NCBI GenBank assembly: GCA_014729445.1
Contig: WJJX01000108.1
Location: 1-46,405, forward strand
Source of the DNA: Candidatus Moraniibacteriota bacterium
Lineage (GTDB): Bacteria; Patescibacteriota; Minisyncoccia; CAIUEV01; JAHKAQ01
Length of the DNA: 46,405 nt
Direction of reading: 5' to 3'
Below, one piece after another: positions 13,961 through 39,136 of the stretch (position 1 is the first letter of the stretch; the number at the start of each line of letters is the position of its first letter). The position numbers were made by a program, and so were the translations under genes. Below the pieces are notes generated by a model, which saw nothing but the letters and a program-made list of their open reading frames with translations, had not been told where the DNA came from and did not search any database.

Positions 13961-16900
13961 TTATTTATCCTCTTCCCGCGAAAGGTCTTCATCGTCCAAT
14001 AATTTAACGTTCAATCCCAATCCCTTCATTTCATTGATTAAAACCTGCAGGGAAGTCGGAGCATTAGGCTTAGGGATTATATCACCCTTGACAATCGCCT
14101 CATAAGCCTTACTCCTGCCCAAAACATCGTCGGATTTCAAGGTTAAAATTTCCTGCAAACTATGGGCCGAGCCGTAAGCTTCCAGAGCCCAGACTTCCAT
14201 CTCTCCAAATCTCTGGCCTCCAAATTGAGCTTTTCCGCCTAAAGGCTGCTGAGTTATTAAAGAATAAGGACCAATTGAACGCATATGAATTTTATCTTCC
14301 ACCAAATGATGCAGTTTCATAATATACATTATGCCGACCGTACTTTTATCTTCAAAAGGCTCGCCGGTAACTCCATCAATCAAAGTGATTTTACCGTCTT
14401 GCGGCAAACCGGCCTTTTTGAGTTCTCTGGCTATCTGCTCTTCTGTCACTCCTCCAAGCACCGGAGAGGCCACTTTATAACCCAAAGCTTGAGCGGCCCA
14501 ACCCAAATGAGTCTCCAAAATTTGACCGATATTCATCCTGGAAGCCAAACCCAGAGGATTTAAAACAACATCCACCGGTGTACCGTCAGGCAGATGCGGC
14601 ATATCCTCTCTTGGAACAATTCGAGCAATTACACCTTTATTTCCGTGTCTGCCGGCTAATTTATCTCCGGCCTGAATTTTTCTTAATTGAGCCAAAGTAA
14701 CTTGAACCTGTTTCATCACTCCGGAAGGCAATTTGTCGCCCTGCTCTCTGGAAAAAATCTTAATCCCGACCACTTTCTTTTTTTCTCCATTCGGCATATA
14801 AAGCGAACTGTCTTTAATATCTCTTGATTTATCGCCAAAAATAGCTCTTAAAAGTCTCTCCTCAGAAGTAAGATCACTCTCTCCTTTGGGGGTGATTTTA
14901 CCAACCAAAATATCTCCGGCCGAGACTTCGGCTCCGATTCGAACAATGCCCTCCTCATCCAAATTTTTCAATCTGTCTTCACCGATATTCGGAATGTCTC
15001 GGGTGACAATTTCAGGACCCAAACGGGTATCGCGAACATCCACTATCAAATCCTCAATATGTATGGAACTATATTTATCTTCATGCAGCAGTCTTTCGTT
15101 TAAAATAATCGCGTCCTCGAAATTATATCCTCTCCAGGAGGTAAAAGCCACCAAAACATTCTGGCCCAAAGCCAGTTCCCCGTTTTCCGTGGAAGCTCCA
15201 TCGGCCAACAACTGGCCTTTTTTTACCTTTTCGCCTTTACTCAGCGCCGGAATTTGATTAATACAGGTAAAAGCATTGGATTTAGCAAAGGTCAACAAAT
15301 CATAATGCCTTATTTTATTTTTCGATTTAACCACTATATGATCGGCATCCACTTCAGTCACCTCTCCGGCTTCCTCGGCCAAAACAACCTGACCTGAATC
15401 GGCGGCCGCCTTATCCTCAATTCCGGTTCCCACAATCGGAGCCTCTGGTTTGATACAAGAAACCGCTTGACGCTGCATATTTGAGCCCATTAAAGCCCGG
15501 TTGGCATCGTCATGTTCCAAAAAGGGAATCAAAGAAGTCGCGATACTGACAATTTGTTTGGGCGAGATATCAATATAATGCGCATCTTTGGCATCAATTA
15601 AAGCCGGATCACCCTTGACTCTGGCCTGAACTTTGTCTTTTAAAAAATAACCCTTCTTATCTATCGGCGTCCCAGCTTGAACAATACTGTATTTTTCCTC
15701 TTCAGAAGCCGTCAGATAATCGACCTGATCCGTTATCTTAACTTTACCGTTTTTTTCCTTTTTAATTTTTCGATAAGGCGTTTCCAGAAAACCGTAATCA
15801 TTCACTCTGGCATAACAGGACAAATGCGTCACCAAACCGATATTCGGACCTTCCGGGGTCTGAATCGGACAGATTCTTCCGTAATGGCTTGTATGCACAT
15901 CCCGGACTTCAAAACTGGCTCTTTCTCTGGTTAATCCGCCCGGCCCCATCGCCGAAAGTCTTCTTTTATGCTCCAATTCAGCCAAGGGATTAACATGATC
16001 CATATATTGAGAAAGCTGCGAACTGGCGAAAAATTCCTTTACCACAGCCGCCACCGGTCTTGAATTAATAAGCTGGCCCGGCATTACGGTCTCCAAATCA
16101 CAGGTGCTCATCCGATCTTTGATATTTCTTTCCATTCTGGCAAAACCAACTCTTAATTTTGCCTGAACCAATTCTCCGACCGATCTTACTCTTCGATTTC
16201 CCAAATGATCAATATCATCAGGCTTGGATTTTGGATCATTATTCAGTCTGATAATTTCTCTAACCGTATTTATGATATCGTCCTTACTTAAAACCATATT
16301 TTCCTTTTTGTCTGCTACCTTCATCTTCAGTCTCACGTTCATTCTATATCTCCCCACTCTTGAAATATCATAATAATCAGGATTAAAAAGCATTCCATCA
16401 ATCATCTGCTTGGCGTTTTCTTCGGTCGCCATATCTCCGGGGCGAATCCTTTTATAAACTTCCTTATAACCCTCGCCCTGATTTTTGGCAATATCCTTTT
16501 TCAGGGTTTCCTCTATATACTGAACTTCTCCCTTATCTATATCCGCAAAAGTTTTTTTGATTTCTTTATCGGTTAAAAAGCCAAAGATTCTAATCAAGGC
16601 CGTAACCGGAACCTTTCTTTTTCGATCAATTTTTACCGAAATCACCCCATTATTATCGGTTTCAAACTCAAGCCAGGCGCCTCTATTGGGGATCAATTTC
16701 GCCCCAAACAGTTTCTTGCCTTTAAATTGCCTCATGGTAAAAAACACTCCCGCCGATCTTATCAACTGGGAAACCACTACTCTTTCCACTCCGTTAATTA
16801 TAAAAGTTCCGCTCTTGGTCATAAGCGGAAACTCGCCCAAATAAATTTCCTGTTCCGTATCTTTTTTGGTATGTTTATTACTAAGTTTAACTCTTACTCT

Positions 16901-25626: not shown

Positions 25627-26931
25627 TCACAATTTAGGATAAATCGGAAATTCCCGACACAAAGCTCTAACCTCCTCTTCAATCCGCTTAATTTTCTGCT
25701 CGTTCTCATAATTCTCCAAAGCGTCACAAATCGCTTTGCCTAAAATTTTCATTTCCCCTTCCTTCATTCCCCGAATAGTCGCGCAAGGCGTTCCAAGTCT
25801 AATTCCGCTTGGCGAAAAAGCCGGCCTTTTATCGCCTGGAATAGTGTTTTTATTTACCGAAATCCCGATTTTGTCTAACGTCTCCTCTGCTATTTTACCG
25901 TCCAAATCTTTACTTGTGACATCCATCAAAACCAAATGATTATCCGTTCCGCCGGAAACCAGCTTAAACCCTCGCTCTAGAAAAATACTCGCCAGCGCCG
26001 CCGCATTTTTAACCACCTGATTGGCCCACCTAAGAAACTCTTCTGTGGACGCTTCCCTCAAAGCAACCGCAATTCCTGCAATTGTGTGCTCATGCGGACC
26101 GCCCTGAAGCCCCGGAAAAATCGCCCGATCAATCAAAGTCGGCAAATTTCGTTCGCTTATCTTATCAGGCTTTTTTAAAGGATTGGAAGGATCACCATTG
26201 CACATAATAATACCGGCCCTTGGACCTCTAAGGGTTTTATGAGTGGTGGAAGTTATCACATGGGCATGTCCGACCGGAGAAACATGCTCGCCCGCAATCA
26301 CAAGACCGATAATGTGAGCAATATCGGCAACAAAAAAAGCATCGTACTTTCTTGCCAATTTCCCGAAAGTTTCAAAATCATATTCTCTCGGATAAGCGGT
26401 GGCCCCGGCAAAAATCAATTTTGGACGATGTTTCTTCAATAACTGTTCAACCTGATCAAAATCGATTCTTTCGTCTTTCCCGACTCCGTAACTGATCGAA
26501 TTAAAATAACGCCCCGAAAAATTAACTTTATGTCCATGGGTTAAGTGACCACCGTTACTCAAATCCATCCCCATAATCCTATCCCCCGGTTCACATAAGG
26601 CAAAATAAGCCGCCTGATTAGCCGGACTTCCCGAATATGGCTGAACATTCACATGATCGACGCCAAAAAGTGCTTTTGCTCGATCAATTGCCAACTGTTC
26701 AATCTGATCTGTATACTCCTGACCGCCATAATATCTTTTCTTTGGAAAACCTTCGGAATATTTATTATTAAAAATCGAGCCCATGGCTTCTAAAACCGCT
26801 CTTGAAGCATAACTTTCCGAAGGAATCATCTCCAAACCGTTTTTTTGTCGCTCCAATTCTTTTTCGATTAAATCATAAACTTCTTTATCCTCTTTTCTCA
26901 AATTTTGATAAACTATTTTCCTTTGCCGCAT
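25627..26931 (-). CDS. glyA: Serine hydroxymethyltransferase
   Basis: 434 aa with the PLP-lysine motif TSTTHKTLRGPRAG and the GGHLTHGH motif. Confidence 0.96.
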   Translation of the reverse strand: MRQRKIVYQNLRKEDKEVYDLIEKELERQKNGLEMIPSESYASRAVLEAMGSIFNNKYSEGFPKKRYYGGQEYTDQIEQLAIDRAKALFGVDHVNVQPYSGSPANQAAYFALCEPGDRIMGMDLSNGGHLTHGHKVNFSGRYFNSISYGVGKDERIDFDQVEQLLKKHRPKLIFAGATAYPREYDFETFGKLARKYDAFFVADIAHIIGLVIAGEHVSPVGHAHVITSTTHKTLRGPRAGIIMCNGDPSNPLKKPDKISERNLPTLIDRAIFPGLQGGPHEHTIAGIAVALREASTEEFLRWANQVVKNAAALASIFLERGFKLVSGGTDNHLVLMDVTSKDLDGKIAEETLDKIGISVNKNTIPGDKRPAFSPSGIRLGTPCATIRGMKEGEMKILGKAICDALENYENEQKIKRIEEEVRALCREFPIYPKL

Positions 26932-26950: not shown

Positions 26951-27547
26951 TTAAAAAAACCGCTTTTTGATTATCTCCCAAATTTCATTTTTAACTTCAT
27001 CTATTGCTTGATTAGCATTAATAATGTACCAATCATATTTAAGCGCCAATTGCTTATGCGTCTCTTGAGCTCTTTTTAAAAGCTCGTTATCCCTGTCTAA
27101 TTTACTATGCTCCTGAGGCGATCGTTCAAACATTTCTCCGTCAAAAAAGACTGCCAAATCTTCATTACGGCTCGATTGATATAAATGCTCCATAATTTCC
27201 GGCTCCACTCCCATAGCGATTCCCCAAGCAGCCGCTGATCCAAAATAACTTTCGCAGACAATAAAAATTCCCTGATCCAGCTTCTTTTCCAGTTCAATGG
27301 TTTTTTGATTCTGATTAATAAAATTCAACAATTGAAACTCTCGATTGGATAAATTATACTTATCCTGATCCCTTAAAAAATTCATAATCAGACTTCCGGT
27401 CGGCTCCAGGCCGTAAACCGGAAATTTAATCGACTCCGCTTGATAACCTTTATCGCTTAATTTTTTGACCAGCAACTCGGCCTGAGTGGAACGACCCAAA
27501 TTATTAATCCCATAAAAAGCGATCAATTTTCCTTTTTTGTTTTGCAT
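26951..27547 (-). CDS. Thymidylate-kinase-like protein with non-canonical P-loop
   Basis: 198 aa, colinear with Tmk (KLIAFYGINNLGRSTQAELL..KGY....KFP). However, the Walker A is GINNLGRS (Arg where the invariant Lys sits) and DRY is replaced by ESY (IVCESYFGS). Confidence 0.6.
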   Translation of the reverse strand: MQNKKGKLIAFYGINNLGRSTQAELLVKKLSDKGYQAESIKFPVYGLEPTGSLIMNFLRDQDKYNLSNREFQLLNFINQNQKTIELEKKLDQGIFIVCESYFGSAAAWGIAMGVEPEIMEHLYQSSRNEDLAVFFDGEMFERSPQEHSKLDRDNELLKRAQETHKQLALKYDWYIINANQAIDEVKNEIWEIIKKRFF

Positions 27548-27633: not shown

Positions 27634-28326
27634 CTAGGCACTGCGAGCTACGCTGACATTCTCAAACTGGCTATTAAAATCCTTATAATACGCCTTGTAA
27701 TTTTCCTCTCTGGTCCATTTTTTAATATAACCCTCGGGCAAAGGCAAAGCCGGAAATCTGTCTAATTTATCCCAGTCATCGCCTTTATACATCGGATAAT
27801 TATAATAGGGATATTGTTTGGGAATACCTCGAATAAAAGCCACTTGCGGAATTTTCCAGCAGGTTCTGGCGTAATAAGCCCGATGCATTCCGTCGCAAAT
27901 TAAATTTGCCACCTTGCCATTGGCTTCAATACTCTCTTCCACAATTACCGGCAAAAAATCTCTGGGCTCCTTTTCGTCTTTAAGCCAAAATCTAACAAAA
28001 CCGTTTAAATTAAAAATATCGACTTTATATTTTCTCATTTCCCAATCCAAATTGGCGATATCCATCAAATTCTGCTCGATAATATACTTTTGCGGGCAAT
28101 ATAACTCTGTAGTATCCAGGTTCTCCAAAGTAACCACCGCATCTTTATAAGGCTGAATCTTAGACGCTTTTAACATTCTGACCGCCTTAAGCCGCTTTAT
28201 TAATTCCTTTTCACCAAATCTTTTAATTTTAATTATTTTCATATTTTTAGAATAAACATTAATTGCCTTATCAAGTTCCTCTAAAGCGACGCGATAAAAA
28301 AAATCATAAATATTTCTCCAAATCAT
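27634..28326 (-). CDS. ParB/sulfiredoxin-fold (DGxHR motif) protein, function unknown
   Basis: 230 aa. LPVIVEESIEANGKVANLICDGMHRAYYAR matches the ParB N-terminal/Srx core pattern (PV.V....G....DG.HR..A). The start overlaps the HAD gene by 23 nt, and an alternative ATG exists at 28242. Confidence 0.5.
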   Translation of the reverse strand: MIWRNIYDFFYRVALEELDKAINVYSKNMKIIKIKRFGEKELIKRLKAVRMLKASKIQPYKDAVVTLENLDTTELYCPQKYIIEQNLMDIANLDWEMRKYKVDIFNLNGFVRFWLKDEKEPRDFLPVIVEESIEANGKVANLICDGMHRAYYARTCWKIPQVAFIRGIPKQYPYYNYPMYKGDDWDKLDRFPALPLPEGYIKKWTREENYKAYYKDFNSQFENVSVARSA

Positions 28327-28948
28327 AAATTGTCGAAATATTCAAATCAGCGTGCTTTGATTTGTTCCAAACAATCACTGTCTGCATTCCCACTCTTTTA
28401 GCGGGAATAATATCCGCTTTTTCCTTATCTCCCACGTAAACATGTTCAATCGGCTTTCCTTTGGTCAATTTCAACATGGCATTATAAGCTCGGCCTTTGG
28501 TTTTACTCATTTTCCGATCTCCGCCAAAAATTCTAAATTCAAAATCGCTTTCAGGATCGAAGCCGATTTTTTTCAATTTCCGATAACTGCTTTCTTTGGC
28601 TGAAGTGGTAATCAAAAAAATGGTGTATTTCTCTTTTAAATAACGAACCATATTCACCAATTCTAAATCCGGCCTCAAAAACTTGTAAACTTCCACTTTG
28701 TTGGAAATATTGGCCGAAAATTGCTCGGCCTTGTCTATTCCTAAAAATCTAAAAGTATCGCTGCCGCTTCCAAAAATCTTATAATTTTTTTCAAAACGCT
28801 CTTCAGCTTCTTCGTAGCTAAGCTTTAACTCTTTACTCAAATCCTTATAAATAGTGTCTCGATAACATTTTTGAATTTCCTCGGTATCCTTATACAAAGT
28901 CTGATCCAAATCGAAACCCACAAATTTTATTTTTTCCTTTCTAAGCAT
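28304..28948 (-). CDS. HAD-superfamily phosphatase (nucleotidase-like)
   Basis: 214 aa with motif I FVGFDLDQTLY (DxDxT), motif II FLITTS and motif IV YVGDKEKAD. Confidence 0.75.
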   Translation of the reverse strand: MLRKEKIKFVGFDLDQTLYKDTEEIQKCYRDTIYKDLSKELKLSYEEAEERFEKNYKIFGSGSDTFRFLGIDKAEQFSANISNKVEVYKFLRPDLELVNMVRYLKEKYTIFLITTSAKESSYRKLKKIGFDPESDFEFRIFGGDRKMSKTKGRAYNAMLKLTKGKPIEHVYVGDKEKADIIPAKRVGMQTVIVWNKSKHADLNISTIYDLEKYL

Positions 28949-28957
28949 AGATTTTTT

Positions 28958-29494
28958 TTAAACCTGAGCCTCCAAATCATCCGCCGAAACGCGACCGCCT
29001 TTCCACTGGCCTCTACTCAAGCTGCTTTTGCCTTTAATTTCACTAAAAACAATAAAAGCGACTCTGGCTCCCAACTCAAATTTAAATTTCGCCGGCCCGA
29101 CATTTTTTAAGCCAAAAGTTAATTTGCCGTAATAACCGGGCGAGACCTTGCCGCTCATTAACATAACTCCGCTTCTAAAAAGCGTGCTTCTGGCAAAAAT
29201 CCGGGCAAAAGTTTGTTTGTCAATATTCACTTCTTCAATCGTTCTAATCAAGACAAAATCATCCGGATTCAAAATATAAAAACGGTCGCCTTCTTTTCTG
29301 GAAGCCGCAAGTTCGCTCATCGGCGTTTTCCTTTCTTCCAGGCCCAAAAAACCGCCCCCGGCAATCTGATAGACTTCATCCACTCTAAGATCAAAACCCG
29401 GCCCCTCCGGTTTTTCAAGTTCCCGTTCGCTTAAATTTTTAACCAATTCCTTTTCTTTAACTTTTTTCAAAATTTCATCGCCGCCTAAAATCAT
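28958..29494 (-). CDS. dCTP deaminase / dUTPase-fold protein with atypical active-site residues
   Basis: 178 aa. ARSTLFRSGV and SPGYYGKLTFGLKN....LGARVAFIVF are colinear with Dcd motifs GRSSLARLG and DPGW.G...LE..N....G..I..L.F. A Gly occupies the position of the catalytic Glu. Confidence 0.65.
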   Translation of the reverse strand: MILGGDEILKKVKEKELVKNLSERELEKPEGPGFDLRVDEVYQIAGGGFLGLEERKTPMSELAASRKEGDRFYILNPDDFVLIRTIEEVNIDKQTFARIFARSTLFRSGVMLMSGKVSPGYYGKLTFGLKNVGPAKFKFELGARVAFIVFSEIKGKSSLSRGQWKGGRVSADDLEAQV

Positions 29495-29707: not shown

Positions 29708-31321
29708 TTAACCTTTATTGATTTTTCCTAACCTCTCTTTGAATCCTTTCTCCAGATCTTCCTTCATCTCGGCATGAAATTTGCTATCATATCCATCGAC
29801 AAAACCCAAGATAAACCCGCAAGTCTCCTCTTCCGGACAAAAGCCGGCATTAACACATTTAGGCTGAATCAAATAACTTAATTCTTTTAAACCCTTATAA
29901 TCTAAAATTTCTTTTAATTGACGAATCTCTTCTTTGGTTTGTCTAAAGATCTGCTCGTCGGCGGTTGGGCAACTTCTTAATTGATAATATCCGTCAACCA
30001 AATTATATAAATTATATTCCTGAACCATATCGATTCTAATCGCCCTTGGAATCACAAAAACGGCATCCTTTTCTTTGATTCCCAACTTCAGTAAATCATT
30101 GTAAGCCTTCATCGAAGTAAACAAAGCCCTCATATACAATTTTAATGTCTTTTCCTTAAGTCTTAATTTGGACGGAATGGCAAAGACTTTATCGATCTCA
30201 TCCAGAGCATCTTCACTCAATCTTGCTTTCTTGTTGAAATCTTTTTCATGTTTTTTAATCACCGACCAGGCTCTATCAATACAATAATAAATCGATTCCG
30301 TGGTAACGGGAGCGGTTCTATGTCTTTTTTTATCCCGCCAGACCCGCCAACTGACATTTGAAAGGGTTTTCACATTAACCGCATTCTGATAATCTCTAAC
30401 CAATTTTCTCTTTAAATCAAGCAGCTTTCTCCAGTTTTTCCTCAATTTTTCCTTCTCTAAAAACAACTCTTCTTGATATTTTTTAATTTCATTAACCCTT
30501 TCTTTGAAGCCCCGACCCAACAAAGCATCAACATTAAAAACCCTGACTTCGTCCTCTTCGGTTCCAAAATCGGCTTTAATATCGCGCACCAAATGATTTC
30601 TTTTGGGATCTTTAAACAAATTGGGATAGGGATAGGTGTTTTTAGGCGCCGCATCTCTGGTGGCAAAAAGCAAATCAATCCCCAGTCCTCTCATTTCCTT
30701 CTCGATCGCTTTTAAAAGAATGCCCCCCTCTTCAGGCATCCATTTTTTTTCCAGTTCATATTCTCTGGCAAAAGTAGCCAGACTTTCGGCCGGAAGGGTG
30801 ATTATCCCTGTTCCATAAGTTCCGTAATGCAGAATCTTTCCAGCTTCATCCTTAATCACTCCCAGCTTCAATAAATCGTTAAAAACCTTGATATTCAAAT
30901 TAGAGGCTTTTTCATAAAGTTCTTTGGCCTCAAAATTCTTAAAAATGGCGGCCGGACAAACATTATGCGCTTTACTCACTTCAGCGCGTCTGCCTGAATG
31001 CATCAAAGCAGAGCTATGGGTTATTCCGGTCAACATAGAACCAAGCATTTTACTGGCCTCAAAACTAAAACAAAAAACCGGCATTGTCGCCATCGAGGCA
31101 TGACCTCTAAGCGAAGATTTTCGAAGAATCAATTTTACCTTTTTAGTTATATCCTGATGTTTCCTTTGAGCTTCATCTATCAAATCCTCCACCGAATCTC
31201 CTTTAAAGGTTAACAAACCGGAGAAAGCGGCTATTTCCTGAGGGCTTAAATTCAAATTTCTAGTTTTATACTGCGGAATTATACCCAAAAACTTAATTTT
31301 CATATCTGTAGTATTTCTCAT
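29708..31321 (-). CDS. Tandem-domain ThyX-like (flavin-dependent thymidylate synthase family) protein, paralog B
   Basis: 537 aa. The N-half has RGHASMATMPVFCFSFEAS...SGRR (ThyX-like, RHR lost). The C-half has RHRTAPVTTES (RHR-x7-S, codons at 30317-30325) and VIPRA...NLYNLVDGYYQLRS. The helix NDLLKLG(V)IK is duplicated at aa 148 and aa 408. Confidence 0.7.
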   Translation of the reverse strand: MRNTTDMKIKFLGIIPQYKTRNLNLSPQEIAAFSGLLTFKGDSVEDLIDEAQRKHQDITKKVKLILRKSSLRGHASMATMPVFCFSFEASKMLGSMLTGITHSSALMHSGRRAEVSKAHNVCPAAIFKNFEAKELYEKASNLNIKVFNDLLKLGVIKDEAGKILHYGTYGTGIITLPAESLATFAREYELEKKWMPEEGGILLKAIEKEMRGLGIDLLFATRDAAPKNTYPYPNLFKDPKRNHLVRDIKADFGTEEDEVRVFNVDALLGRGFKERVNEIKKYQEELFLEKEKLRKNWRKLLDLKRKLVRDYQNAVNVKTLSNVSWRVWRDKKRHRTAPVTTESIYYCIDRAWSVIKKHEKDFNKKARLSEDALDEIDKVFAIPSKLRLKEKTLKLYMRALFTSMKAYNDLLKLGIKEKDAVFVIPRAIRIDMVQEYNLYNLVDGYYQLRSCPTADEQIFRQTKEEIRQLKEILDYKGLKELSYLIQPKCVNAGFCPEEETCGFILGFVDGYDSKFHAEMKEDLEKGFKERLGKINKG

Positions 31322-31537: not shown

Positions 31538-32233
31538 TCAATAAGAATTTACTTCTGTCAATCCGACCGCTTCCCAAATCATCTGCGCAATCTCCTTTTT
31601 CGAAAGAATCTTTCCATTTTTCACACAATCAATCCTCTGCACCGCTCCCGATTTTACTAAATCCTCGGCGCTTTTTTTTGCATTATTCAGATGAGAGGCA
31701 CTCTCTTCATAAACGTCTTTTTTTCCACCCAGATACTGCTTTTTTTCGGTTTTATTGCCGGCCAATTTTCTCGCGATATCCAAAGAGACATCCAAATAAA
31801 TAATCAAATCCGGTTTGGGAATCTTAAACACCTCATACTCCATTTTTTCAAGCCATTTTAGATATTTTAATCTCTCTTTTTTGCCTTTTAACTTACCTCC
31901 CTGATGAATAAAATTGGAGCTAACATATCTATCCGACAAAACAATATAACCCTGCTTGATCCATTTCAAAATTTCCCCGCTTGATTCAAAACGGTCACAA
32001 GCGTAGAGAACCGACGTTACATAAGGATCCAAAGTCAAAAAATCTCCATGCTCGCCTTTTAAACATTCTCCGATTAATTTTCCAAAAAAATTATCATAAT
32101 ATCTTGGAAAATCGATTTTTTTCACCTTTCGTCCCTCTTTCTTTAATCGATCGAAAAGCATTTCGGTTTGTGTCGCCTTCCCGCTGCCGTCGATTCCTTC
32201 AATAATAACAAATTTTCCGGCTTTGTTTCGCAT
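31538..32233 (-). CDS. tmk: Thymidylate kinase (canonical)
   Basis: 231 aa with a P-loop IIEGIDGSGKATQ, FPRY and the DRYVSS motif. Confidence 0.9.
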   Translation of the reverse strand: MRNKAGKFVIIEGIDGSGKATQTEMLFDRLKKEGRKVKKIDFPRYYDNFFGKLIGECLKGEHGDFLTLDPYVTSVLYACDRFESSGEILKWIKQGYIVLSDRYVSSNFIHQGGKLKGKKERLKYLKWLEKMEYEVFKIPKPDLIIYLDVSLDIARKLAGNKTEKKQYLGGKKDVYEESASHLNNAKKSAEDLVKSGAVQRIDCVKNGKILSKKEIAQMIWEAVGLTEVNSY

Positions 32234-32238
32234 AAATT

Positions 32239-32721
32239 CTAATTAAAAACCACCTTCATAACCTCAACCTCGCTCTGCCCGAAATAACTCCAGGCCACCT
32301 CGTCTCCATCATAATCTTTTAAATAAAGAACTCTTTTGATTTTAGAATTAATAATAGATTTGGTGCACATCGCGCAGGGCCGATAGGTTACATATAAATC
32401 GGATCCGGAAATATTAACCCCCAAAGAGGCGGCATTCGAAATCGCGTTTAATTCGGCGTGACTTCCCCGGCAGAGACCCTGATGTTTCAAAACTTTAATG
32501 CCCACCTTTTTGGCGCAGCCCACCTCAAAACAATGCTCCAATCCTTTTGGAGGACCATTATAGCCCATACCCAAAAGTTGATTTTCTCTCACCAAAACCG
32601 CTCCCACCTGATAATGCAAACAAACCGACCTGGTCTTTATCTGATCGGTTAGATTAAACCAAAACTCCTCCCATTTAGGTCTTTTGATTCCCTTTTTTAT
32701 CCTCCAAACTTTATTTTTCAT
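32239..32721 (-). CDS. dCMP deaminase (cytidine/deoxycytidylate deaminase zinc-binding family)
   Basis: 160 aa with zinc motifs HAELNAI and PCAMCTKSI, and ComEB-like size. Confidence 0.88.
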   Translation of the reverse strand: MKNKVWRIKKGIKRPKWEEFWFNLTDQIKTRSVCLHYQVGAVLVRENQLLGMGYNGPPKGLEHCFEVGCAKKVGIKVLKHQGLCRGSHAELNAISNAASLGVNISGSDLYVTYRPCAMCTKSIINSKIKRVLYLKDYDGDEVAWSYFGQSEVEVMKVVFN

Positions 32722-32792: not shown

Positions 32793-34178
32793 CTACACCA
32801 ATCTTTTCACAAAATAATTCTCTTCCTGCCTGTTAATCAAATCTCTCCCGCAATAAAGAGGACCTCTCCAGCACTTTCCCTTTCTGTAGCAGGGAGGCTC
32901 AAAAAATTTAACAAGTTCCGTATCCCCCAGTCTTTCTTTAATCTCGGACCTGAGCTGACGGCTCAATTCATAGATATCCCTGGTATTATGCCAGCATAAA
33001 CGACCGGCCTGTTCATGACAAATCGAATTTAAGGAGGATTTTTTAGTATATTCAACCATAGCTCCCAAAGGCGCCAACACCGTGGCCAAAGTTTTATCCA
33101 TATTTTTATAGATAGATCTCCATTGCACCAAAATTTTTCGAGCATCTTTAGCCAAACCCAATGCCTTGGCGATAACCGATAGATAAATATCTCCGGTAAA
33201 AACCGGACGGCTTCTTCTGATAGTTCTATATCTCTGATCCTGACTCATAGTCGCAATCGGCAAATTCACCTTCACAACCAAATCCTTCAAGTTGTTATTC
33301 ATAAAAATCGGCAGATAATGAAGTTTGTCTATCTCATACATCGCGTTTTCCCGAGGGACAATAAAGGAAGCGGCATTTTTTAAAAACTTCAAATCATAAT
33401 TCATAAGTTTCAACTTAAGTTCGAAATCAACCGCTCCTTCTTTCTTTTCTTTCATTTTCGGATACCAAAAATTTTTCTTCCTTTTTTTGGCTTTAAATAA
33501 AAAACTTAAGTCAGGATATTTATTAATAACTTGAGCCGCCATGGAATCCAAAAGAAAGCGCATAACCGGATTCCAGCTTGATTCATACAAAGCGGCCAAA
33601 CTCAACAGATTAATCGAATAAACCAAATTAGTGGGAAATATAGAAGGGATAAAAATCCGCAACTGTTCCTGGGCAATTTTTTCGCTTCTATCTTCAATGA
33701 ACTGATCGCTGGCATAAGGTCTTTCTTTCTTCAATAATTCCTGAGCCATATTTTGAGCCTTGGGCAAATTTAATTGGTAAGTTTCATGGCTCTTTTTTAC
33801 ATAATCTATAACGGCTTTAATTTCCGACTTTTTCAAGGCCCAAAAACCTTTAATGTAATCCTCGATAAAATCTATATCCTCTTCATTATAAAATCTAAGC
33901 CCGAAACTGCCGCTCTTTTGATCGCTATTATAAAAAGGATTCACCAAGTGCAAACCAAAAATGACGTCTCCAATGCTTACGTTTTTGATTTGAAAATTTA
34001 AATTAAAATGAGAAAACGGCGTATGATGCCCGGTATTAAACAATTTTTCCTCAATGTCTATCTCTTTACCAGCCTCACTTTTACTGTTTCCATAACACTC
34101 TTTATAAACGTTAAAAAGCAGTTTTTGAGGATCAAGCTTTGTATGAGAAATCAATTTGATTTGGATAGTCTTTTTCAT
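32793..34178 (-). CDS. Tandem-domain ThyX-like protein, paralog A
   Basis: 461 aa. The N-half TGHHTPFSHFNLNFQIK matches the ThyX HGHETPFEH block, but RHR is replaced by LHL. The C-half has QRYRTIRRS (RYR) and LAPLG...SLNSICHEQAGRLCWHNTRDIYEL. Confidence 0.65.
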   Translation of the reverse strand: MKKTIQIKLISHTKLDPQKLLFNVYKECYGNSKSEAGKEIDIEEKLFNTGHHTPFSHFNLNFQIKNVSIGDVIFGLHLVNPFYNSDQKSGSFGLRFYNEEDIDFIEDYIKGFWALKKSEIKAVIDYVKKSHETYQLNLPKAQNMAQELLKKERPYASDQFIEDRSEKIAQEQLRIFIPSIFPTNLVYSINLLSLAALYESSWNPVMRFLLDSMAAQVINKYPDLSFLFKAKKRKKNFWYPKMKEKKEGAVDFELKLKLMNYDLKFLKNAASFIVPRENAMYEIDKLHYLPIFMNNNLKDLVVKVNLPIATMSQDQRYRTIRRSRPVFTGDIYLSVIAKALGLAKDARKILVQWRSIYKNMDKTLATVLAPLGAMVEYTKKSSLNSICHEQAGRLCWHNTRDIYELSRQLRSEIKERLGDTELVKFFEPPCYRKGKCWRGPLYCGRDLINRQEENYFVKRLV

Positions 34179-34228: not shown

Positions 34229-34906
34229 CTAGTCTTTTATTTTAATACTTGGCCCCATTGTGGAAGTAAGATAGAGCCTTTTGATCATTTTCCCCTTCAC
34301 TTTTTGAGGTCTGTTTTTTTCCAGCTTTTCGATAAAATCCTTGTAATTTTCCAACAATTTCTTTTTTCCAAAGGAAAATTTGCCGAGAGCTTGATGAATA
34401 ACTCCAGTTGGGTCGTTTTTAACCGTGACCATTCCTTTTTTTAACAGTTCCACCGTATCTTTGATCTCTTTGGTTACCGTATTATTTTTGGGGCTGGGCA
34501 TTAATCCTTTTGGACCTAATATTTTGGCTATTTTAGCTAATTTAGGCATCATCGACGGATCGGCAATCACTATGTCAAAATCAAGCTTTCTCTTTTTATT
34601 TTTAATTCTTTCAATATCCGCTTCACCCAAAATCACATCCGCGCCGGAAGCTTCCGCCTCTTTGGCTTTAGTGCCTTCGGCAAAAACCGCGACTTTCACT
34701 TTTTTTCCTGTTCCATGGGGCAAATTCAAAGAAAATTTAAAATTCTGCTCCGACTTTTTAGGATCGATATTTAAGTTAACATGGACCTCTAATGTCTCAT
34801 CAAACTTAACCTTGTTCATGGCAAGTAAAAAATCGAGAGCCTGACTGACGTCTTTTATTTCTTCCAATTTAGCTTCATTGTTTCGATAACGCTTACTTCT
34901 TTTCAT
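34229..34906 (-). CDS. rplA: 50S ribosomal protein L1
   Basis: 225 aa with a typical L1 sequence (KFDETLEVHVNLNIDPKK..Q.....NLPHGTGK..KVAVF), downstream of rplK. Confidence 0.95.
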   Translation of the reverse strand: MKRSKRYRNNEAKLEEIKDVSQALDFLLAMNKVKFDETLEVHVNLNIDPKKSEQNFKFSLNLPHGTGKKVKVAVFAEGTKAKEAEASGADVILGEADIERIKNKKRKLDFDIVIADPSMMPKLAKIAKILGPKGLMPSPKNNTVTKEIKDTVELLKKGMVTVKNDPTGVIHQALGKFSFGKKKLLENYKDFIEKLEKNRPQKVKGKMIKRLYLTSTMGPSIKIKD

Positions 34907-34937
34907 CTTATATAATTTTTTAAGTATTATTCTGAAT

Positions 34938-35366
34938 TTATTTATTCCAATCCACGTTCACCCCCATACTTCTGGCTGTTCCTCCAATAATTTTTTTGGC
35001 CTCCTCGACGTCGTCGGCGTTTAGATCCTCCTTTTTTCGCTCGGCAATTTCAGCCAGTTGAGTGGCGGTAATGGTCCCCACTTTATCCTTTTGAGGGACT
35101 CCCGAGCCTTTTTTTAATTTCAAAGCTTTTTTGATCAATTCGGCCGCCGGAGGACTCTTTAAACTAAAATCAAAACTTCTGTCTTCATAAACGTTAATGT
35201 CCACCGGTATAACATCCCCCATCATCTCCTTTGTTTTTTCATTGAATTGAGTACAAAAATCCTGAATATTTAAACCATGCTGGCCTAACGCCGGACCGAC
35301 CGGAGGACTCGGATTGGCTTTACCGGCCGGAATCTGTAGCTTAATCACTGTTTTTAACTTTTTCAT
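34938..35366 (-). CDS. rplK: 50S ribosomal protein L11
   Basis: [38 protein letters not shown] is the canonical L11 N-terminus. I prefer the second ATG (35366) over the ORF-track start (35390) because of homology with the usual L11 start. Confidence 0.93.
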
Positions 35367-35404
35367 CTTATTGAATCTTAAAAAAACCAATTATTTTTAT
35401 TGCG

Positions 35405-35425
35405 AATCTCTATCGGTAAGAGATC
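35405..35425 (-). promoter_or_regulatory. Hairpin in the nusG-rplK spacer (possible L11-operon leader element)
   Basis: A 6-7 bp stem (ATCTCT/AGAGAT) with a 7 nt loop sits in the 71 nt spacer where L1-binding leaders occur in other bacteria. Sequence identity to known leaders was not verified. Confidence 0.2.
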
Positions 35426-35461
35426 GGCCAAAAACGAAAATTTTCCTTTCCGCAGAAACTG

Positions 35462-36004
35462 TTACAATTTTTTTAACTGCAAAAAATCCAAATCAACGGG
35501 AGTCTCCCGATTAAACATATTCACCAGAACTTTCACCTTGCCTCTTTCTTTATCAACAAACTGAACCTTTCCGTCAAAATCTTTAAAAGGACCGTCCACA
35601 ATTCTTACAGGATCGCCTTTAAGCAGATTAATTTCGTATTTCGGTTCCTCAACCCCCATTCTCTTCATAATATTATCCACTTCCTGCTTGCTCATTGGAA
35701 TCGGAACAGTACCGGAACCCACAAATCCGGTCACATTAGGCGTATTTCTAACCACATACCAGGAATCGTCGGTAACAATCATCTCAACCATCACATAACC
35801 GGGATAAATTCTTTCCTTGATTACCTTTCTTTTGCCGTTTTTAATCTTGATCTTTTTTTCCGTTGGAACCAAAACATTAAAAATCTTATCCTGCATATCC
35901 AGAGATTCGATCCTCTGGCGTAAATTTTTAGCTACATTATCCTCGTATCCGGAATAAGTATGTAAAACATACCACGCTTTTTCTTTTGGTAAATCCTGTT
36001 TCAT
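35462..36004 (-). CDS. nusG: Transcription termination/antitermination factor NusG
   Basis: 180 aa with an NGN domain (WYVLHTYSGYEDNV) and a KOW motif (GDPVRIVDGPFKDFDGKV). Confidence 0.95.
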   Translation of the reverse strand: MKQDLPKEKAWYVLHTYSGYEDNVAKNLRQRIESLDMQDKIFNVLVPTEKKIKIKNGKRKVIKERIYPGYVMVEMIVTDDSWYVVRNTPNVTGFVGSGTVPIPMSKQEVDNIMKRMGVEEPKYEINLLKGDPVRIVDGPFKDFDGKVQFVDKERGKVKVLVNMFNRETPVDLDFLQLKKL

Positions 36005-36396: not shown

Positions 36397-37215
36397 TCAA
36401 CCACAAAACTCTCTAAACATTTTTGCTGCATTCTTAAAATTATCTTCTATGTAAGGCTCCCCTTTATCATTTGTCATACCAGGAAAATATATATCGCCTA
36501 CTTTTTTTAAGACTTCCATATTCGGAAACGGAGAACTCGGTTCATAATTAAAAAAAACATCTAATGTTTTCGGATTAAAAGATCTAATTTTATTAACTAC
36601 ATTATCCAGCGTATTCCCACTTACAATATCTTTATCAAATAAAATAATTCTACTTGATTCCAATTTATGTTCAAGATTATTTAAGCCGATAAATTTAACG
36701 ATCTTCCTATCATCTCCCCTCTCTACTTGAATAATTTCCGTTTTTAATCCAACCAATAAAAATACACAACCTGAAAAAATCCCCCCTTTTGCAATTGACA
36801 GACCTAAATCATAATTTTCGACAATCTCTTTAGCCAGAAGAAGCGTATCCGCTACTCTAAAAGAAGGATAGTCTTGCCTAAATCCATTATCTGTTAAACT
36901 TTTTATATACTTATTGTAGACCTTATTTTTAATCCTATCCCACATAAAAAAATATATATCAACCCTAACATGCTCTGACTCATTTTCAAAAACACCGCTA
37001 TCCAATCCCTGCATAACTACCTTTTCCATCATTTCCCAATTTTTAGCCTCTTTATAACAACTATATGCAAGAGATAAAAACCCTTCAGATAAAGCATCTT
37101 TAGCCAAAGATTCCATTTCGGGAACGTCAATTTTAGAAGAATTAGTCAAACTTTTATACTTTCTCCAATAATCTTTCTCAAAAGTATCCTCTTCTCCTTT
37201 TTGCTCAATATTCAT
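36397..37215 (-). CDS. Phosphoribosyltransferase-like protein with unknown N-terminal domain
   Basis: 272 aa. The C-terminal half has SIAKGGIF... and RIILFDKDIVSGNTL, which resembles the type I PRTase PRPP-binding loop (hydrophobic x4-D-x-D-x-x-x-G-x-T). Confidence 0.5.
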   Translation of the reverse strand: MNIEQKGEEDTFEKDYWRKYKSLTNSSKIDVPEMESLAKDALSEGFLSLAYSCYKEAKNWEMMEKVVMQGLDSGVFENESEHVRVDIYFFMWDRIKNKVYNKYIKSLTDNGFRQDYPSFRVADTLLLAKEIVENYDLGLSIAKGGIFSGCVFLLVGLKTEIIQVERGDDRKIVKFIGLNNLEHKLESSRIILFDKDIVSGNTLDNVVNKIRSFNPKTLDVFFNYEPSSPFPNMEVLKKVGDIYFPGMTNDKGEPYIEDNFKNAAKMFREFCG

Positions 37216-37272: not shown

Positions 37273-39030
37273 TCAAAAAAATTTCAAAACATCCTTACTC
37301 TTCCCTCCTCTTAACCCTCTCTTGTAACTTTCCAACTTATCAAAAGTTCCGTAAATGACGGCCAGACAAAGCCACATCGGCATAAAAAATATTCCGGAAT
37401 TAAACCAATTGGCAACAACAAGACCGATAATTACCATAACAATCATTTGATTATAAATATAAAGTTTATGATAATTCGATTCGCCTTCAATGATGGAAAT
37501 TCGCTTGATTTCTTTCACCAGTCTTTTCTCTCTTCCCGACAAATATTGCAGATTTCTTATGATAAGACGCGATAATAACAAAACAAAAACAACCAAACCG
37601 CCCAAACCGGCGGAAATCCACCACTCCCAAAACACATTACTGGCATTGTACAAATAATCCCTTCTTGCCGTTGTCGCTCCCTGGCCTTGTCCCAAAATCG
37701 GACTTTGTTTAACCAATTCCCAATTGGAATCATAAACGCTCTCTCTTATTTCTATATTTTCGTCACTTATCATTTTCTCAACCACTCGATAACCCAATTT
37801 TTTATAATACTCTATCTCCTCCAAATTGATCTTAAACGATTCATCGCCCCGCTCGGCAACCGTTATAATATGCTCTCTGGTAAAAATACTGACGAATCGA
37901 TCGTTTAAATTAAAGCGGGTTAAATTAAAAACCAAAACCGATCCCAAAGCCAAACCGAAAATAACTAAACTCATCAAAAAAACAAATAAAGAATTAAGAA
38001 AAACCTTAAAATTGATCCGTTTGAAAAACAAACTCAAAATTGAAAAAATCAAAAATCCCCCAAACATTAAGATAACACTCACCCAGGCCGCTCGAGCGAC
38101 ACTAATAATAAGCGTTATAAAGGCCAAATAAAGGATAATCATAATCCAAACCGGCGCCACCCTTACATTCAAAAATTCCAACAGCGCTTTTTTATCCAAT
38201 CGATTTTTCTCTTCCAGATCAAAGCTTTCCTCTCTTTTCTCCTCTTTTTGAAGCTGTTTTTTGAAGCTTGAAAACTGATTCAGTAAAATCGGCACCACAA
38301 GCGCGATTAAAAAAACCAGATACATCCCCAACCAATCCGGCTCGAAAAAAGTGCCATTTGGTCTGGCAGCCATTATCTGAAAACTTTCCAATCCTTTTTC
38401 AAAAGCAACATTTTGATAAATGGAGAAAGCAAGAATCGGAAAAGAGGCAAAGATAAAAGCTTTAACTACTCTCTCTAAACCATATTTTTTGCTTTTTATC
38501 CACCAGTAAATTAGGAAGGTTATAAAAACAACCAAAATAAAAACAATTGTCTGTTTCAAGGAGTAAGAAAAATTATAGGCATTGAACAAAGCGATAAAAC
38601 TAAAAAGAACCAAAAGCCCAAGTAAAGTCAGAAAATATCTGCCCTCGGCATAAACCGCTAAAACCTCTTTTTTTAAATTAAACCAATAAAATCTAAACCA
38701 GCTGAAAAATTCCTTAAGCTTTGAATCTCCCCATTTACAGGTTCGACAATGGTTTTTTCTGATGAGCCTGATGAGACGATAAATCAATATGAAAAAGATA
38801 AAAAAGCCAACCCAGTGATAAATTCGAAATCCCAAAATTTCTATAATATCCACACAGGAAAAAGCGGTTAAAAAAATGATCATCCAGCTCTGTGAAACAA
38901 ATAACATGGTAAAGACCGCGGTCAAAGTCAAAAAACTAACAATTTCACTTTCGAAAAATCCCAGCAGGTAAAAAATCAAAAGAAAAAGCAGCAGTAAATT
39001 AACAACAATGTAAGGAATTTTTCTTCGCAT
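37273..39030 (-). CDS. Polytopic membrane protein, O-antigen ligase/polymerase (Wzy_C)-like
   Basis: About 585 aa from the ATG at 39030, because the longer track ORF runs into tRNA-Leu. It has more than 10 TM segments and a central SVARAAWVSVILMFGG segment reminiscent of Wzy_C. Assignment is by architecture. Confidence 0.45.
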   Translation of the reverse strand: MRRKIPYIVVNLLLLFLLIFYLLGFFESEIVSFLTLTAVFTMLFVSQSWMIIFLTAFSCVDIIEILGFRIYHWVGFFIFFILIYRLIRLIRKNHCRTCKWGDSKLKEFFSWFRFYWFNLKKEVLAVYAEGRYFLTLLGLLVLFSFIALFNAYNFSYSLKQTIVFILVVFITFLIYWWIKSKKYGLERVVKAFIFASFPILAFSIYQNVAFEKGLESFQIMAARPNGTFFEPDWLGMYLVFLIALVVPILLNQFSSFKKQLQKEEKREESFDLEEKNRLDKKALLEFLNVRVAPVWIMIILYLAFITLIISVARAAWVSVILMFGGFLIFSILSLFFKRINFKVFLNSLFVFLMSLVIFGLALGSVLVFNLTRFNLNDRFVSIFTREHIITVAERGDESFKINLEEIEYYKKLGYRVVEKMISDENIEIRESVYDSNWELVKQSPILGQGQGATTARRDYLYNASNVFWEWWISAGLGGLVVFVLLLSRLIIRNLQYLSGREKRLVKEIKRISIIEGESNYHKLYIYNQMIVMVIIGLVVANWFNSGIFFMPMWLCLAVIYGTFDKLESYKRGLRGGKSKDVLKFF

Positions 39031-39051
39031 AACAAAAATATTAACGCCTAG

Positions 39052-39136
39052 TGCCACAGGAGGGATTTGAACCCTCACGTCCCTAAAGGACACTAGCCCC
39101 TCAAGCTAGCCTGTCTACCAATTCCAGCACTGCGGC
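39052..39136 (-). tRNA. tRNA-Leu (anticodon GAG)
   Basis: The 85 nt sequence GCCGCAGTGCTGGAATTGGTAGACAGGCTAGCTTGAGGGGCTAGTGTCCTTTAGGGACGTGAGGGTTCAAATCCCTCCTGTGGCA was folded by hand. It has a 7 bp acceptor, a 3 bp D stem, an anticodon stem CTAGC/GCTAG with loop TTGAGGG, a long variable arm and a GAGGG-TTCAAAT-CCCTC T arm. CCA is not encoded. Confidence 0.85.

Follow-up and report, generated by a model that had tools for sequence, protein, structure and literature searches.

Flavin-dependent thymidylate synthase (ThyX, also FDTS; PF02511), known from Thermotoga maritima (TM0449), Mycobacterium tuberculosis and Helicobacter pylori, is a mechanistically unusual flavoenzyme and an antibacterial target. 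To our knowledge all solved ThyX structures are single-domain homotetramers, and the active sites of the T. maritima tetramer lie at the subunit interfaces. In the T. maritima enzyme S88, R90, Y91 and R174 are functionally weighty: R174 activates the substrate deoxyuridine monophosphate (dUMP), and the conserved R90 adjoins the proposed general acid Y91, its mutation slowing consumption of the flavin carbinolamine and leaving the R90A mutant kinetically impaired (PMC8316439). Another flavoenzyme of ThyX fold, PolB of polyoxin biosynthesis (PDB 4p5a/4p5b), methylates C5 of uridine monophosphate (UMP) or dUMP, its specificity having moved from dUMP alone. Here we analyzed positions 1 to 46,405 of contig WJJX01000108.1 (assembly GCA_014729445.1) of a Candidatus Moraniibacteriota bacterium. 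This stretch of 46,405 nucleotides (nt), called the window below, carries two very different ThyX-like genes, A and B. A is a fused double ThyX whose four-cysteine architecture recurs in large families, and it belongs to a clade of five proteins which have lost the R90-equivalent arginine and which all occur beside a B gene.

Gene A and its two halves were delimited as follows:

32793..34178, minus strand: paralog A, a fused two-domain ThyX-fold protein of 461 amino acids (aa), family A (intact open reading frame (ORF); Pfam Thy1; 48 close homologs; AlphaFold2 and Foldseek)
33483..34178, minus strand: A N-half, ThyX domain, about residues 1-232, without the Arg-His-Arg (RHR) motif (hhalign of the family profile to T. 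maritima ThyX, E 3.6e-8; column counts)
32796..33473, minus strand: A C-half, second ThyX fold plus Cys-rich C-terminal extension, residues 236-461 (AlphaFold2 of the C-half alone; Foldseek; hhalign to the B C-half, E 1.6e-4)

The Pfam Thy1 match was confined to residues 8-198 (E 7.6e-14, 52.4 bits, cut-off 24.8), with no Pfam match in the C-half, and the NCBIfam thyX equivalog TIGR02170 reached 35.4 bits, under its cut-off of 87.9, over residues 7-69 only. The AlphaFold2 model of the whole chain (mean predicted local distance difference test, pLDDT, 88.5; predicted template modelling score 0.88) revealed one helix/strand pattern occurring twice, and its PDB matches in Foldseek were exclusively ThyX structures (E about 1e-6). 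The C-half was also modelled alone from a 28-sequence alignment (pLDDT 87.7) and matched ThyX-fold structures only, namely T. thermophilus Thy1, PolB and T. maritima ThyX (E 7.5e-6 and weaker, TM score 0.5-0.57). Since the profiles of the two halves gave no significant match to each other (E 0.26), the internal duplication rests on fold and not on sequence. Evidently, A is a tandem, double-domain ThyX in a single chain, just as the original prediction, made by a model from the DNA letters, had proposed.

The motif strings quoted in that prediction were all found at the residues given, including the tail C430-x5-C436-x6-C443. Residues 49-65 read TGHHTPFSHFNLNFQIK, residues 75-92 GLHLVNPFYNSDQKSGSF, residues 313-323 QDQRYRTIRRS, residues 368-372 LAPLG and residues 382-405 SLNSICHEQAGRLCWHNTRDIYEL. 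T. maritima numbering was taken from the TM0449 sequence, which is 100% identical to PDB 1kq4_A residues 13-232. The motifs of interest are:

33945..33953, minus strand: L76-H77-L78, at the site of T. maritima R78-H79-R80 (hhalign; non-Arg flanks throughout family A)
33903..33914, minus strand: S89-G90-S91-F92, equivalent to T. maritima S88-G89-R90-Y91 (Ser91 confined to the five A proteins co-occurring with B)
33225..33233, minus strand: R316-Y317-R318, RHR motif of the C-half having Tyr in place of His, equivalent to T. maritima R78-H79-R80 (codon and column counts)
32979..33002, minus strand: R393-L-C395-W-H-N-T-R400, R393 being the equivalent of T. maritima R174 (residues 397-400 altered from the family consensus C-A-Q-E)
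32850..32891, minus strand: C430-x5-C436-x6-C443, putative metal site together with C395 (family A column counts; the pattern recurs in B and in a third fused family, C)

In the N-half, hhalign paired H51, S89, E171, R174 and N190 with T. maritima H53, S88, E144, R147 and N163 and aligned the S89-G90-S91-F92 loop as listed. Behind R393 in the C-half the family consensus L-C-W-C-A-Q-E-E-I-Y corresponds to A-D-S-H-A-Q-W-E-I-Q of T. maritima. The ThyX signature RHR-x7-S is not present within one domain of A: the N-half has L76-H77-L78 followed by ten residues and S89, and the C-half has R316-Y317-R318 without an S-G-R-Y loop. Of the residues which bind and activate dUMP in T. maritima (S88, R90, Y91, R147 and R174), window A has S89, R174 and R393, whereas Ser91 replaces the R90 equivalent and Phe92 the Y91 equivalent; the main-clade members of family A do have this set of residues.

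Family A comprises the 48 close homologs (34-67% identity, 445-502 aa), 77 loci in GTDB species representatives and, in a library of 1.84 billion proteins, 134 clusters at 50% identity (E<=1e-30). Conservation was counted per alignment column over 180 distinct full-length sequences. H51, H77, S89, R174, R316, R318, R393, C430, C436 and C443 were each found in 180/180, C395 in 179/180 and C28 in 176/180. R91 was present in 175/180, the remaining five (P0001-P0005) having Ser. Position 76 is L, M, F or A and position 78 L or M, and H317 was retained in 178/180, with Tyr in the window sequence alone and Ser in one other. The RYR triplet is thus a secondary change private to the window genome. Its Tyr317 codon, TAT at 33230..33228 (33228-33230, minus strand), is one C-to-T transition away from CAT; a search for public sequencing reads found no run covering this stretch, and an assembly error is possible at this codon.

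The second ThyX gene of the window lies 1.47 kb downstream of A:

29708..31321, minus strand: paralog B, a fused ThyX of 537 aa from the more common of the Patescibacteria families (C-half with canonical RHRx7S, R333-S343)

As had been noted beforehand, the two fused genes lie about 1.5 kb apart and are very different: BLASTP gave no significant match between A and B. Profile comparison by hhalign aligned their C-halves with E 1.6e-4 (149 columns) and their N-halves with E 0.06 (166 columns), the cross pairs being worse, and the RHR site, the R-x-C motif and the Cys tail aligned column by column. Thereby A C395/C430/C436/C443 were matched with B C451/C489/C495/C501, so that the fourth cysteine is indeed the counterpart of C451 of B, albeit at residue 395 and not at 396 as first given.

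Family B comprises more than 216 clusters of about 535 aa from Patescibacteria. Its N-half has SSLRGHAS, with TGIxFSS at the RHR site, and an S-G-R-R loop and lacks RHR; its C-half has KKRHRTxPQxxES (canonical RHRx7S), L-R-x-C451 and C489-x5-C495-x5-C501. Window B is near-consensus, N243H being its sole deviation among B-family columns conserved at >=95%. Family C ("long ThyX", about 520 aa; sequences P0049-P0056, P0294-P0325 and P0326-P0442) has at least 5448 database matches annotated as FAD-dependent (flavin adenine dinucleotide-dependent) thymidylate synthase, from Acidobacteriota, Kryptonia/Bacteroidota, Fidelibacterota and others. In its N-half FLHSHPFYNSEQVSQRY is found, with FLHSH in place of RHR and a PFYNS-x-Q block as in A; in its C-half RHR, MRLCYNAQEEIW and PPC-x11-CPEG-x-RYCG. 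Chlamydia trachomatis has a 529-aa ThyX of demonstrated activity, and this protein too may be one of the long type. Searching the PDB by sequence gave no fused ThyX among the solved structures, and no description of a fused, Cys-bearing ThyX turned up in the literature searched.

Families A, B and C have a common four-Cys set, one Cys two residues past the R174-equivalent Arg and three in a tail ending in C-G, of the form PPC...C(P)EGxRYCG. Because the three families share them, the RHR-less N-half and the four-Cys set are old and widespread features of fused ThyX and not peculiar to gene A. Window A, with two ThyX folds and four conserved Cys, keeps this fused-family architecture, but has S-G-S for S-G-R and R-Y-R for R-H-R. 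The Cys4 set would most simply be a metal site, occupied by Zn or an iron-sulfur (Fe-S) cluster. The original prediction had seen a ThyX signature altered in both halves: LHL and RYR are both there, but neither is special in the sense intended, RYR being a singleton and LHL family-wide. As the ancestral N-half state of families A, B and C, which amount to thousands of proteins, LHL is uninformative on gene A in particular.

The five A proteins which co-occur with B are monophyletic and nested within family A in a neighbour-joining tree. Of 123 conserved columns, 9-18 are altered in these proteins, compared with 0-6 in most other members, and window A has the most private changes, H317Y among them. 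R91S, S307P, Y371L, E400R, A398N/H and C397H/F/Y occur in 5/5, K392G and E438R in 4/5, and the first four are the identical residue in every member; Ser91 and Leu371 are found in exactly these five of the 180 sequences. All other family-invariant columns are kept. The ORF is intact across the five lineages at 45-67% pairwise identity, and root-to-tip lengths are only slightly raised. Between the window and its relative L090, which carries P0002 (67% identical to window A; the N-terminus of B there lies at the contig end), synonymous divergence (dS) is saturated and nonsynonymous divergence (dN) is 0.24 for A, compared with 0.25 for tmk, 0.22 for rplA and 0.19 for the dCMP (deoxycytidine monophosphate) deaminase gene. 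A is under purifying selection. Given that R91 is the R90 and R393 the R174 equivalent, the changes of the sub-clade cluster on the S-G-R loop of the N-half and on the R174-equivalent helix of the C-half, which meet at the nucleotide.

The genes around A and B, all on the minus strand in the order nusG, rplK, rplA, A, dCMP deaminase, Tmk1, B, Dcd, HAD, ParB-CE, Tmk2 and SHMT, associate A with the pathway of thymidine monophosphate (dTMP):

34229..36004, minus strand: nusG-rplK-rplA block, upstream; conserved in relatives as the anchor of the dTMP operon (relatives' loci)
32239..32721, minus strand: dCMP deaminase (Pfam dCMP_cyt_deam_1, E 4.8e-21)
31538..32233, minus strand: dTMP kinase Tmk1, 231 aa (Pfam, NCBIfam)
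28958..29494, minus strand: dCTP (deoxycytidine triphosphate) deaminase / dUTPase-like protein, Dcd (Pfam DCD, E 1.4e-22)
28304..28948, minus strand: HAD-type hydrolase, pyrimidine 5'-nucleotidase-like (profile matches)
27634..28326, minus strand: ParB-CE domain protein (Pfam PF24392, E 4.2e-56)
26951..27547, minus strand: Tmk2, second, divergent thymidylate-kinase-like gene, 198 aa (Pfam; 29% identical to Tmk1)
25627..26931, minus strand: serine hydroxymethyltransferase (SHMT), source of methylenetetrahydrofolate (Pfam SHMT, E 5e-156)

The suggestion that each ThyX gene begins a sub-operon of its own was not confirmed. A follows rplA after 50 nt; the 216-nt gap before B holds one promoter-like match, and such sites were not above chance in the window (21 found, 22.9 expected).

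Gene context in other genomes was derived from local tblastn of the window proteins against fetched loci together with gene tables, the loci reaching at most +/-10 kb. Within this distance A stands without B in about 70 species loci, typically in the order nusG-rplK-rplA-(kinase)-dCMP deaminase-A-Tmk(-MazG) (L005, L013, L014, L019, L026, L077 and others). Conversely, B alone occupies the syntenic slot of A on a 1.2-Mb contig of a close relative (L088; secE-nusG-rplK-rplA-dCMP deaminase-B-Dcd-HAD-ParB-CE-SHMT-FolD; identity to the window 79% for NusG, 75% for ParB-CE and 58% for B) and, similarly, in L089. A and B were found together on shared contigs solely in the window, L090, L006/L008, L007 and L009. 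The two genes thus behave like alternative occupants of one thymidylate-synthase slot, which suggests that each is self-sufficient and disfavors the obligate A/B hetero-oligomer of the original prediction as a property of the families.

In our preferred reading, to which we give a probability of roughly 0.6, B would serve as the housekeeping synthase, and A would be a paralog that has been kept and remodelled so that it binds nucleotides differently. Each family A chain has one complete ThyX catalytic set split between its halves: the N-half contributes the equivalents of T. maritima H53, S88-G-R90-Y91, E144 and R147, and the C-half those of R78-H79-R80 (the FAD motif) and of R174 (dUMP activation), plus the four invariant Cys. 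With one split set per chain, a dimer of fused chains would form a pseudo-tetramer with two and not four active sites, and family A would ancestrally be a thymidylate synthase acting as such a dimer. The A proteins of the sub-clade would still bind flavin and metal, their nucleotide-phosphate pocket being remodelled, and would be sub- or neo-functionalised through an altered substrate or altered kinetics. Judged from the residues replaced, window A has probably lost ordinary thymidylate production, and it does not appear to be a pseudogene or simply a second copy. The sub- or neo-functionalisation proposed earlier is hence supported for A in this lineage, albeit by R91S, Y371L, A398N/H and E400R and not by LHL or RYR.

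Several points weigh against this reading. Phe stands at the Y91-equivalent position in 80/180 family A sequences, so that not all T. maritima residues are essential here, and E400R could merely compensate R91S, with normal dTMP synthesis retained. The sub-clade is known from five members only; co-occurrence was scored within +/-10 kb on shared contigs, and genomes in which only A was seen may carry B elsewhere. The sequence alignment of the C-half with T. maritima ThyX is weak (hhalign E 0.077), and for that reason the R174 and RHR equivalences of the C-half rest on motif coherence and fold. Furthermore, the label "thymidylate synthase" for families A and B is deduced from fold, residues and operon context, the closeness of residues 91, 392 and 400, and that of the four Cys, is presumed, and the metal site and a relocation of the arginine are likewise putative.

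A possible though unlikely alternative is that A is an ordinary, fully active thymidylate synthase, A and B being two isozymes which differ in electron donor, oxygen tolerance or expression, with R400 taking over the phosphate contact of position 91. The remaining catalytic equivalents and the Cys4 set are kept, selection on A is purifying, A stays in the dCMP deaminase/Tmk context, and the positive charge lost by R91S and K392G is matched by another gained in E400R, all of which would suit such an isozyme. However, Patescibacteria genomes are small, and two enzymes for one reaction seem costly there. R91 is moreover present in 175/175 family A members outside the sub-clade, and its loss is restricted to loci with a second ThyX, the pattern expected once the constraint on the original function has been lifted. 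The kinetic impairment of R90A in T. maritima (PMC8316439) likewise speaks against a silent replacement. It is improbable that A functions only together with B in this one sub-clade, one A and one B chain forming the pseudo-tetramer and the A pocket being regulatory or structural. Both proteins have the two-half architecture and the Cys pattern, they always share a locus in the sub-clade, and canonical ThyX active sites lie at subunit interfaces; yet A and B are too diverged for a BLASTP alignment, families A and B are each self-sufficient elsewhere, and one or two genes and the 216-nt gap separate the two genes without translational coupling.

The deviation of the sub-clade at 9-18 conserved columns and the private changes of the window copy, including H317Y, could also be read as decay, A having become redundant after the arrival of B and drifting under relaxed selection towards a pseudogene, with RYR and SGSF as early lesions. 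This is highly improbable: an intact ORF has survived in each of the five diverged lineages, dN of A equals that of rplA and tmk at saturated dS, root-to-tip lengths are hardly raised and the other family-invariant columns are unchanged. S91, P307, L371 and R400, being identical in all five, were fixed once and then conserved. A pseudogene was accordingly rejected on the grounds of the shared fixed substitutions, the purifying selection and the kept invariant columns.

Returning to the remodelled paralog, a new activity may involve a substrate other than dUMP or another one-carbon outcome; the hydroxymethylation that had been suggested, or a dCMP substrate, is speculation. Furthermore, if an Fe-S cluster sits two residues from the dUMP-activating Arg, the flavin could be reduced by ferredoxin or other low-potential donors and not by reduced nicotinamide adenine dinucleotide (phosphate), NAD(P)H. 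The bolder proposal, that the five-member A is a new flavin-dependent pyrimidine-nucleotide-modifying enzyme derived from thymidylate synthase and kept beside B in genomes of very small size and, separately, that the Cys4 set of long fused ThyX may be an Fe-S cluster, we regard as unlikely.

Family A is hosted mainly by Patescibacteria, and the nearest named relatives are metagenome-assembled genomes (MAGs) of Moranbacteria/Patescibacteria. Some gut or rumen MAGs with family A are labelled Alphaproteobacteria, Rickettsiales or Enterousia (L051, L062, L064, L071, L079 and L083). Homologs were also found on three viral contigs of IMG/VR (L085-L087), in L087 beside genes for replication (one for a protein with a PolB exonuclease domain, one for a divergent ATPase resembling DnaB), and the context is phage-like in L003/L004; a search of cultured or deposited phages gave one weak partial match only. 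In L078 (9998-14005) residues of about 1-387 of an A-family protein, without the Cys tail, are fused in frame to a full UvrA in a 1336-aa ORF, which is probably an assembly chimera or deletion. An apparent split A gene in L084 was rejected as an artefact of N-runs and frameshifts. Seven representatives of about 235-250 aa contain the C-half only (P0257, P0261, P0265, P0266, P0268, P0269 and P0273), starting at about profile position 204-211 and continuing to the end, and three the N-half only (P0239, P0270 and P0281); these could be contig fragments, mis-called genes or truly unfused two-gene versions of the enzyme.

The window locus holds two synthase-like and two kinase-like genes. Tmk1 is of the standard type, 54-58% identical to the Tmk adjoining A in other genomes, and the Tmk2 type adjoins A in L015, L023 and L035. 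The ParB-CE protein is conserved as part of the dTMP/folate operon of B type (B-Dcd-HAD-ParB-CE-SHMT), with 70-75% identity among relatives (L006 15331-15960, L009 about 15334-15954, L088 11142-11756); what a ParB/sulfiredoxin-like protein would do in a thymidylate operon is not obvious, and no literature was found on it. Further upstream, a 272-aa protein (36397-37215, minus strand) lies between nusG and an O-antigen-ligase-like gene and matches PRTase-CE weakly (E 0.04, under the cut-off). The mechanically assigned GTG start of the 606-aa O-antigen-ligase-like ORF (37273-39093) overlaps tRNA-Leu (39051-39136) on the same strand, and the true start probably lies further downstream. Throughout the window the guanine-cytosine (GC) skew is negative (-0.18 to -0.41 per 2 kb), and nearly all long ORFs are on the minus strand, which fits one replichore with a strong gene-strand bias.

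With catalytic residues split between diverged halves and an invariant four-Cys site, the fused proteins form a class of single-chain double ThyX that is very large and structurally uncharacterised. In the window two such families stand in one locus, one of them having lost the R90-equivalent Arg, which amounts to a natural experiment. If A has a new substrate, it would join PolB as a second instance in which ThyX chemistry has been turned to a different pyrimidine modification, here in Patescibacteria; if the Cys4 set is redox-active, it would bear on what reduces ThyX physiologically, a question of long standing. Failing both, the locus still illustrates displacement in situ and the divergence of paralogs within a nucleotide operon.

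Compared with the known systems, PolB ranks with the best structural matches to the A C-half and provides a precedent for neo-functionalised ThyX paralogs. It is, however, a single-domain homotetramer from an antibiotic gene cluster with 9-12% identity to the A C-half (Foldseek) and no relation beyond the fold, and use of UMP by A is without support. Family C shares 23-28% identity with A, its chains being longer and the first two tail Cys further apart. Family B has a fused plan identical to that of A (RHR-less N-half; C-half with RHR, R-x-C and a C-x5-C-x5/6-C tail) and the same slot after nusG-rplK(-rplA) beside a dCMP deaminase or Dcd-like gene, but its C-half has retained the RHRx7S spacing, and its companion genes are Dcd, HAD, ParB-CE, SHMT and FolD. 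With canonical ThyX, A has in common the fold of both halves, GH-x-T-x-x-x-H, the S-G-R-Y loop (as family consensus) and E-x-x-R-x-x-x-P in the N-half, RHR (in the family) and the R...AQ-x-EI helix in the C-half, and a place in a dTMP-pathway operon. In contrast to canonical ThyX, A is one chain of two diverged halves with partial catalytic sets, so that at most half of the active sites survive; family A splits the motif, with RHR in the C-half and the S-G-R-Y loop in the N-half, and adds a C-terminal extension with four invariant Cys, and window A furthermore has H79 replaced by Tyr, R90 by Ser and Y91 by Phe (T. maritima numbering). While the basic ThyX kind is thus already known, the architecture with the Cys4 set and the clade-specific loss of the R90 equivalent are the main points of interest.

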